DNA of 23,721 nucleotides from Escherichia coli (GCF_003334815.1 NZ_QOWO01000049.1); one strand, 5' to 3'. Numbered from the stretch's first letter, positions 20,137 through 20,545 are shown. The notes: a model not told the origin generated them from the letters alone. Program-made: numbers and translations.

Positions 20137-20242
20137 TTCAAATTGGCCTTTTTATCGTCTGAAATGGTCTACAACTGCCTATTCGAGACAAAACATGGCA
20201 GATGTGACAACTTACTATGGAGAATAATCCAAGGTGGCAGAT
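20137..20242. promoter_or_regulatory. Divergent intergenic switch region between the cox-like and C-like genes, with TGGCAGAT direct repeats
   Basis: 106 bp between divergent starts; TGGCAGAT at 20196-20203 and 20235-20242, AAACATGG at 20191-20198 and 20248-20255; possible -10 TACTAT at 20213-20218 for the C-like gene. Confidence 0.45.
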
Positions 20243-20545
20243 ATGTCAAACATGGGTGAGAAGATTCGCCTGATGCGAAAAGCTGAGGGAATGACCAGAA
20301 AGGAACTAGCTGAATTAATAGACGTTTCTTATGGTAGTCTCACTAACTATGAAACAAAGGGAGTTCTGACAACAGAGACAATCCTCCTGAAACTAACGAA
20401 CCACCCTCGATTCCAAAAGTATGCATTATGGTTAATGACAGGAAAAACATCTGAGGCTGCGGGACAAATCTCTCCGCATCTCTCTCTCAGTGGCTCAGAA
20501 ACCTCAGTTCCTGTTCAGGTTTCAACCAGAAAGCCCCCAGAATAA
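20243..20545 (+). CDS. Phage P2 C-repressor-like protein (immunity repressor family)
   Basis: 100 aa from ATG 20243-20245 (RBS AAGGTGG 5 nt upstream); as remembered, P2 C shares the pattern MSN--EKI-LMRK-E-----LA-L--V-YG-L--YE ... F-KY-LW-MT-----E-GQI-P. Divergent from the cox-like gene, as in the P2 switch. Confidence 0.8.
   Translation: MSNMGEKIRLMRKAEGMTRKELAELIDVSYGSLTNYETKGVLTTETILLKLTNHPRFQKYALWLMTGKTSEAAGQISPHLSLSGSETSVPVQVSTRKPPE

Follow-up and report, generated by a model that had tools for sequence, protein, structure and literature searches.

The gap between a phage-type repressor gene and a divergent cox-like gene in the transfer region of an Escherichia coli plasmid contains short direct repeats. 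Their presence raises the question of whether they are the operator of the repressor and, if so, which genes this operator controls. The window analysed here was a stretch of 23,721 nucleotides from E. coli (NZ_QOWO01000049.1), with an F-type transfer region on its minus strand. A 1,001-bp query taken from it was 100% identical to the E. coli plasmid pJNE25-005_2 (NZ_AP045059.1). The genes are ordered as traM (21283..20876), the C-like gene on the plus strand, the cox-like gene on the minus strand and then traA (pilin, 19242..19601, minus strand), which is the first transfer-operon gene downstream of cox and is followed on the same strand by traL, traE, traK and others. Elsewhere in the window, an SLT transglycosylase gene (21731-22238) is frameshifted in RefSeq, yet an intact 168-aa ORF was found at 21732-22238, and the neighbouring DUF932 gene (22540-23025) is a RefSeq pseudogene with an internal stop.

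The C-like gene (20243..20545, plus strand) encodes a 100-aa helix-turn-helix repressor of the P2 C family. Both the RefSeq start and the alignment with P2 C support the ATG at 20243, and a Shine-Dalgarno-like AAGG precedes the gene at 20231-20234. The protein matched phrog_147 (E 7.5e-29). Residues 3-90 of 100 aligned with the P2 C structures 2XCJ and 2L49 (E 4e-16), and identity to P2 C was 45% (40 of the 88 residues in the PDB alignment). The cox-like gene (19837..20136, minus strand) encodes 99 aa when read from the ATG at 20136 and 95 aa from the RefSeq ATG at 20124. Its product matched Pfam Phage_Cox (E 1e-20), phrog_272 (E 2.8e-32) and P2 Cox (4LHF, E 2.8e-21), with which it shares about half of its residues. 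The initial annotation had described the pair as a C/cox switch and was right to do so; the protein families match P2 C and P2 Cox. It made no mention of the position of the switch, which occupies the traJ/traY site directly upstream of traA.

The gap between the two genes is 106 bp long with the cox ATG at 20136 and 118 bp long with the RefSeq start at 20124. Two repeated 8-mers had been reported from it, and direct reading together with a repeat search placed both exactly where they had been located, TGGCAGAT at 20196-20203 and 20235-20242 (39 bp start to start) and AAACATGG at 20191-20198 (plus strand) and 20248-20255. TGGCAGAT forms the front of a longer, 15-nt direct repeat, TGGCAGAT(G/A)TG(A/T)CAA. 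The window copies, TGGCAGATGTGACAA (half-site 1, 20196..20210, plus strand) and TGGCAGATATGTCAA (half-site 2, 20235..20249, plus strand), are identical at 13 of 15 positions, directly repeated 39 bp apart and non-palindromic. With up to two mismatches permitted, the 15-mer was found only at these two sites in 41 kb of plasmid sequence including the whole window. The C start codon (ATG, 20243-20245) lies inside the second 15-mer and directly abuts its TGGCAGAT 8-mer.

An exact repeated 8-mer was seen in 5-11% of dinucleotide shuffles of the region (106-136 bp), and thus neither 8-mer is significant by itself. The 13/15 repeat of the window was reached in 10 of 2000 shuffles and the 14/15 version present in two sister haplotypes in 1 and 5 of 5000, the repeat length for these tests having been picked after the data were seen. 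AAACATGG, which had been put forward as a second operator half-site, was rejected as such. It was not significant, it is out of register with the TGGCAGAT repeat, and its first copy is broken to AAATGTGG in haplotype B (see below). A third copy lies within the cox coding sequence (20050-20057, as AAACATGGC at 20050-20058) and is also altered. We judge AAACATGG to be a chance repeat.

The C proteins of the P2 family are about 100 aa long and recognise pairs of direct repeats, each of 8-10 bp. The repeats of a pair lie 22, 26 or 34 bp apart, on either side of the -10 or the -35 of Pe, the early promoter, and both are required in vivo (PMC1904268, PMC1904263). The 39-bp spacing found here is greater than in any of these characterised operators and gives the half-sites a phase offset of about 0.7 turn. 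We consider this a deviation and not a disqualifying one, since differing spacings are known, and are tolerated, in the family; W-phi C, for example, tolerates spacing changes in vivo (PMC1904268, PMC1904263).

The position of the repeats relative to the predicted cox promoter closely follows P2. The best sigma-70-like site of the region, and its sole strong one, is on the cox strand (20221..20249, minus strand) and matches the consensus at 10 of 12 positions, with a -35 TTGACA (20249..20244), a 17-nt spacer and a -10 TATTCT (20226..20221). Leftward transcription from this Pe-like promoter is predicted to start near 20214. The predicted -10 sits between the repeat copies. Half-site 2, which is promoter-proximal and O1-like, covers the -35 and 9 nt, or half, of the spacer, and half-site 1, promoter-distal and O2-like, corresponds to about +5 to +19 of the predicted transcript. 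Read on the opposite strand, the C start ATGTCAA gives the predicted -35. The elements follow the same order in the P2 reference record, where the Pe -35 coincides with the C start (also ATGTCAA) and is followed by O1, the -10 and O2, Pc being near cox.

It had been suggested that the overlap of the second copy with the C start indicates autoregulation. The overlap itself is real, as the second 15-mer contains the ATG at 20243, but autoregulation does not follow from it and is only weakly supported. Since the first codons of C (ATGTCAA, read as TTGACA on the other strand) carry the Pe -35, the overlap is a trait of the family, and a repressor bound to copy 2 would thus block the cox, or early, promoter, which is a simpler explanation. 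P2 C does autoregulate Pc (PMC1904263), and by analogy autoregulation could occur here too, particularly if Pc is close to half-site 1.

No convincing C promoter was found in the switch region, only weak candidates (8/12). One of them, TTCAAA-17-TGAAAT (20137..20165, plus strand; 4/6 and 4/6), is a low-confidence candidate that was read by eye below the threshold of the promoter scan and was placed by analogy with P2 Pc. TACTAT at 20213-20218 is an alternative candidate -10. The first candidate lies under a periodic array of four 8-mers between cox and half-site 1 (20142..20180, plus strand), namely ATTGGCCT (20142), TATCGTCT (20153), AATGGTCT (20163) and AACTGCCT (20173), with start-to-start distances of 11, 10 and 10 bp. 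These are candidate Cox boxes; the cox-boxes of P2 are spaced by 10-11 bp and overlap Pc (PMC3936717). Four candidates were found here versus six or more in P2. The array was the best periodic one in the region and was equalled in 2 of 1000 shuffles, the boxes being self-defined. It was identical across all three haplotypes, and similar periodic motifs occur at the equivalent place in phage relatives. A further direct repeat, ACAACTGCCTAT (20171-20182) and ACAACTTACTAT (20207-20218), is identical at 10 of 12 positions over a distance of 36 bp; its first copy overlaps the fourth candidate Cox box and its second abuts half-site 1.

Only the operator region and the C gene resembled phages at the DNA level (window 20192-20499). 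Among phage proteins, the nearest homologue of the C-like protein (P0003) was 67% identical to it and shared the recognition-helix motif SYG-x-x-NYE. It belongs to the second immunity module of a P2-like prophage recovered in Logan contigs L006-L009. The gene is preceded by GGCAGATGTGACCAAC, which is homologous to half-site 1, then by AGAATA (TATTCT on the other strand) and then by GACAGATATGTCCAAC, homologous to half-site 2. The predicted promoter of this module, TTGACT-17-TATTCT, has the same -10 as the plasmid, and the half-site core CAGAT(G/A)TG(A/T)C(C)AAC is common to both. The prophage switch differs in its spacing of 31 bp, the plasmid carrying eight extra bp (ATCCAAGG) between the -10 and half-site 2, and in its -35, which is a different hexamer located further into the gene. 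It also has an integrase neighbour, and its cox is cut to a stub comprising the first codons only. Taken alone, the prophage repeat was not significant (324 of 5000 shuffles). Since these half-sites accompany a C homologue beside a mere cox stub, the repeats travel with C and not with Cox. The intact Cox of the prophage, from its other immunity module, was 49% identical to the plasmid Cox. The two modules stand in tandem (L006 920-2106, also in L007-L009), in the order cox, a 95-aa C-type gene, the second-cox stub with its switch region, P0003 and integrase.

Other phage relatives had a direct repeat of their own, 10-17 bp long and 31-34 bp apart, at the equivalent place. In PhiR44_2 this was a 17-nt repeat 31 bp apart (2 of 5000 shuffles) in a P2-type layout with the predicted promoter TTGACA-18-TATCCT. 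The distance was 32 bp in L010 and L013, 33 bp in L004 and 34 bp in L025. The last of these (NC_041848, ‘Escherichia phage P2’, from O157:H43 strain T22) has CCTATATAGG twice, 34 bp apart, at 1443-1486, and both its C protein (MKLSEKIKALREAE...) and its operator differ from those of reference P2. Assignment of this record to the W-phi type was rejected, the published W-phi O1 being TATTGGTGAC (PMC1904263). The record seems to represent an immunity type of its own, one that L-413C, R18C and others appear to share, judging from their identical BLAST statistics.

Three natural haplotypes of the plasmid locus were found: that of the window, haplotype B (CP099215, L016, L017, L087 and L094) and haplotype C (L018-L023 and two near-identical contigs, eight in all, from at least six sequencing runs). 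Conservation among related plasmids had been proposed as a check on both repeats. It held for the TGGCAGAT cores, which are kept in all three haplotypes, and failed for AAACATGG, broken in haplotype B. The differences between haplotypes also spare the -10, the -35, the Cox boxes and the cox-adjacent region. The low dS of the adjacent C gene (0.10) leads to an expectation of about 10 changes in the 106-bp gap, versus 5 observed. Half-site 1 is TGGCAGATATGACAA in all the other haplotypes, a single change from G in the window to A that makes the two copies more alike (14/15). Conservation within the lineage is a weak test, as only three closely related haplotypes exist, and because sampling of the plasmid lineage is so shallow the phage relatives provide the stronger evidence. 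Values of dN/dS were 0.085 for C and 0.027 for cox, the latter between haplotypes A and B with a dS of 0.48. Both genes are therefore under purifying selection in their plasmid setting, cox very strongly so between these two haplotypes.

In haplotype C a 1-bp loss in a G-run near the 5′ end of cox (equivalent to 20083-20090) introduces a stop after 20 codons, so that no more than an internal ORF of 72 aa is left. The switch thus does not always keep both of its proteins intact, and haplotype C may represent a lineage locked in one state. The same haplotype has TACAAT in place of TACTAT (20213-20218, between half-site 1 and the Pe -10), which on the C strand makes a better -10-like hexamer.

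The genes controlled by the putative operator are suggested by the location of the switch. Homology to plasmid CP088376 ends at 19737 and restarts at 20817, which delimits a phage-derived cassette of 1,079 bp (19738..20816). Many E. coli F-like plasmids have the same flanks, about 97% identical, but between them lie the gene for a TraJ of 93 aa and, at the traY position, a gene of 55 aa. From these breaks, the cassette substitutes for a traJ/traY-like module of 1,046 bp together with its upstream regions. The last 13 codons of the 55-aa gene, including its stop, survive as a fossil 3′ end at the cassette junction (19699..19737, minus strand), and the phage-type arrangement is thus the derived one. 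The 55-aa gene of the sister plasmids had no family match in Pfam and NCBIfam, its identity as traY being based on position and an RHH-like sequence pattern only, and the sister TraJ had no match in NCBIfam. In the window, neither traJ nor traY was annotated between traM and traA, and no FinP or traJ-leader RNA family was detected in 19200-22000 using Rfam. There was no phage integrase after C and there were no phage early or replication genes after cox, the flanks being traM and traA-traL-traE.

The cox gene is co-oriented with traA and lies 235 bp upstream of it. No terminator-like site was predicted in 19600-21500. The native promoter region, including PY, is gone with the traJ/traY module, and given this loss, the shared orientation and the lack of a predicted terminator, Pe is the likely promoter of the transfer operon. 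If so, C is a likely fertility inhibitor, since the Pe-like promoter probably drives that operon. Between the traY-position gene and traA, the sister plasmids have the same segment that directly precedes traA here. Promoter-like hexamers were found on the tra strand between cox and traA (19826..19798 and 19754..19727), scoring only 9/12, and in view of these traA could have a promoter of its own.

Two structured segments were observed in and beside the cassette. Just upstream of traA (19615-19700, minus strand), a 14-bp perfect hairpin, GGCACAGAAUCAUU...GAUGGUUCUGUGCC, is followed by a second hairpin and then U7, with a folding z-score of -2.5 for 19590-19840. This hairpin segment weighs against transcription of traA from Pe, although it is common to the TraJ-type sister plasmids, and could be an attenuator or an element for mRNA processing or stability. 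Between C and traM, an 18-nt inverted repeat (20678-20743; 89% complementary, 30-nt loop) is followed by TTTTTAT on the minus strand and could act as a terminator between these convergent genes.

We conclude that the TGGCAGAT(G/A)TG(A/T)CAA copies are probably P2 C-type operator half-sites in a phage switch that controls the tra genes. The original proposal of TGGCAGAT and its 7-nt extension as half-sites is thereby upheld at the sequence level by the P2 C-family protein, the Pe-like layout and the core shared with the prophage. Taken by itself, the operator would add one more specificity to the immunity types of the P2 repressors, a well-studied family that uses direct and not inverted repeats; what sets it apart is its location. 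We infer a scheme in which a C dimer or higher oligomer on both half-sites would exclude RNA polymerase and shut off cox. When C does not occupy them, the Pe-like promoter would drive cox and, by read-through into traA, the whole transfer operon. Cox, once made, would bind the 10-11-bp boxes beside its own gene, silence the promoter of C and fix the ON state, the outcome being a bistable transfer-ON/transfer-OFF switch. Spontaneous switching in P2 amounts to about 4.5e-4 phages per bacterium (PMC1904263), and by analogy the plasmid switch would show rare stochastic activation, as well as derepression on entering a recipient that lacks C. A broader evolutionary claim, that an F-like lineage has swapped TraJ, TraY and FinP for a complete P2 C/Cox switch whose Pe drives cox and the whole tra operon, seems to us about evenly balanced. 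It is less likely that Cox also stands in for TraY as a DNA-bending accessory factor at oriT; no extra C half-sites or Cox-box arrays were found at oriT or elsewhere in the 41 kb of plasmid sequence.

The repeats could be genuine C operators and the cassette could still be cargo, that is, a captured phage immunity module and not a regulator of transfer. It would then provide superinfection immunity against P2-like phages of the same type, or Cox-mediated interference with prophages or satellites, and the tra operon would be run from a separate promoter between cox and traA. Cross-immunity is plausible given that the prophage operator is almost the same, promoter-like hexamers do exist downstream of cox, and haplotype C has retained C while losing full-length cox. 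However, those hexamers are just 9/12 matches and nothing resembling a terminator was predicted between the co-oriented cox and traA. Furthermore, the cassette does not lie in a cargo region but stands exactly in place of traJ, the traY-position gene and the promoter regions upstream of them, and the very strong purifying selection on cox between haplotypes A and B also argues against this reading. We therefore consider the cargo explanation unlikely.

The remaining explanations deny the repeats a role in C binding. The 15-mers might be bound by Cox or by a host factor, or might be duplicated -35-like elements with no repressor involved. Seen from the cox strand, the two 15-mers are TTGACATATCTGCCA and TTGTCACATCTGCCA, each opening with a -35-like hexamer (TTGACA and TTGTCA), and P2 Cox is known to autoregulate Pe at high concentration (PMC3936717). 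A second promoter with the TTGTCA of half-site 1 as its -35 was nevertheless rejected, as there is no usable -10 at 16-18 nt; the candidates TCTCGA, CTCGAA and TCGAAT, as read from the sequence, all lack A at position 2. Cox-type sites recur every 10-11 bp and not at 39 bp, a separate array of that kind is present at 20142-20180, and the prophage half-sites occur with a C homologue next to a cox remnant. Such an explanation is quite improbable, and a chance origin of the repeats, as a functionless feature of a short AT-rich intergenic region, is about equally so. The frequency of exact 8-mers in shuffles and the post hoc choice of the tested length would fit chance. Against it, repeats of 13-14/15 arose in just 0.02-0.5% of shuffles, they are placed around the promoter as in P2, the switch of the 67%-identical homologue has the half-site core too, and polymorphism among haplotypes makes the copies more alike. 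We thus retain the interpretation of the 15-mers as C operator half-sites of a transfer switch.

The arrangement is rare. Searches with tblastn, using C and using Cox, identified tra-linked C/cox genes in two of 72,556 PLSDB plasmids (CP099215 and CP099211). Only one of 5,426 complete E. coli genomes had the arrangement, and this was the source plasmid itself. A search of 5.8 billion proteins returned two 98%-identical clusters in addition to prophage proteins, and a metagenome pattern scan added two further haplotype B contigs among 16 matches. More diverged tra-linked switches were absent from all four collections. A scan of IMG/VR with half-site 1 gave 58 matches, all of which were dismissed as chance since they had neither a second half-site nor a C gene nearby. 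The searchable literature yielded nothing on a Cox/C module in F-like tra regions, and an F-like plasmid with a P2 C/Cox switch transplanted to its traJ/traY position appears to be undescribed there.

The significance of the locus thus resides in its mechanism and in the evolutionary example that it offers, and not in its frequency. Should the proposed scheme be true, a phage switch that is epigenetically bistable and independent of SOS would govern conjugation, with low-frequency stochastic switching in established hosts and a ‘zygotic induction’ of transfer in fresh recipients lacking C. Cross-talk would be expected with P2-like prophages and P4-like satellites that share its immunity type: a prophage could silence the plasmid, the plasmid could confer immunity to the phage, and Cox could act on prophages. 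If C represses transfer, the locus would be a natural case of interchangeable phage and plasmid regulatory modules and a compact two-protein conjugation switch, and it would open a route for resident P2-like prophages and plasmids to control one another's spread.

The P2 switch is the closest known system. In both, C and cox are divergent and about 110 bp apart, C is homologous over its whole length and Cox is a homologue, two direct repeats bracket the -10 of the cox-side promoter, periodic 10-11-bp boxes lie beside cox, and the start of C, ATGTCAA, gives the Pe -35 when read on the other strand, the promoter being a predicted one and the boxes candidates in the plasmid. They differ in half-site sequence (TGGCAGATRTGWCAA here versus GTTTAGAT in P2), in repeat spacing (39 bp versus 22 bp) and in the repeated unit, which is longer here. 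The plasmid also lacks an integrase after C and orf78, B and A after cox, having traM and traA as flanks. The heteroimmune P2 relatives W-phi and P2 Hy dis show that the sequence, length, spacing and position of the half-sites vary freely in the family while the logic of direct repeats is kept (PMC1904268, PMC1904263). The 39 bp of the plasmid is nevertheless beyond the characterised range, and the operators of these phages control no non-phage genes.

With the TraJ/TraY/FinOP system of F-like tra operons, including TraJ-V of the IncFV-like group C plasmids (PMC5102898), the C/cox locus shares its position between traM and traA. It probably also has the same task, which is to silence the transfer operon in the majority of cells and to provide the operon's promoter. 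The F system relies on an activator and an antisense RNA, whereas the C/cox locus is a repressor/anti-repressor pair of phage origin; the proteins and the logic are unrelated, and no TraJ, TraY or FinP is present at the C/cox locus.

Phage-like immunity repressors that hold conjugation genes off, as proposed here for the C-like protein, are represented by SetR of SXT/R391 and ImmR of ICEBs1. These are lambda CI-type repressors of integrative elements and act at dyad-type operators, whereas P2 C-type repressors bind direct repeats. SetR loses its activity through RecA-stimulated autocleavage, and the ImmA protease inactivates ImmR; in contrast, P2 and its C-type repressors are not SOS-inducible.
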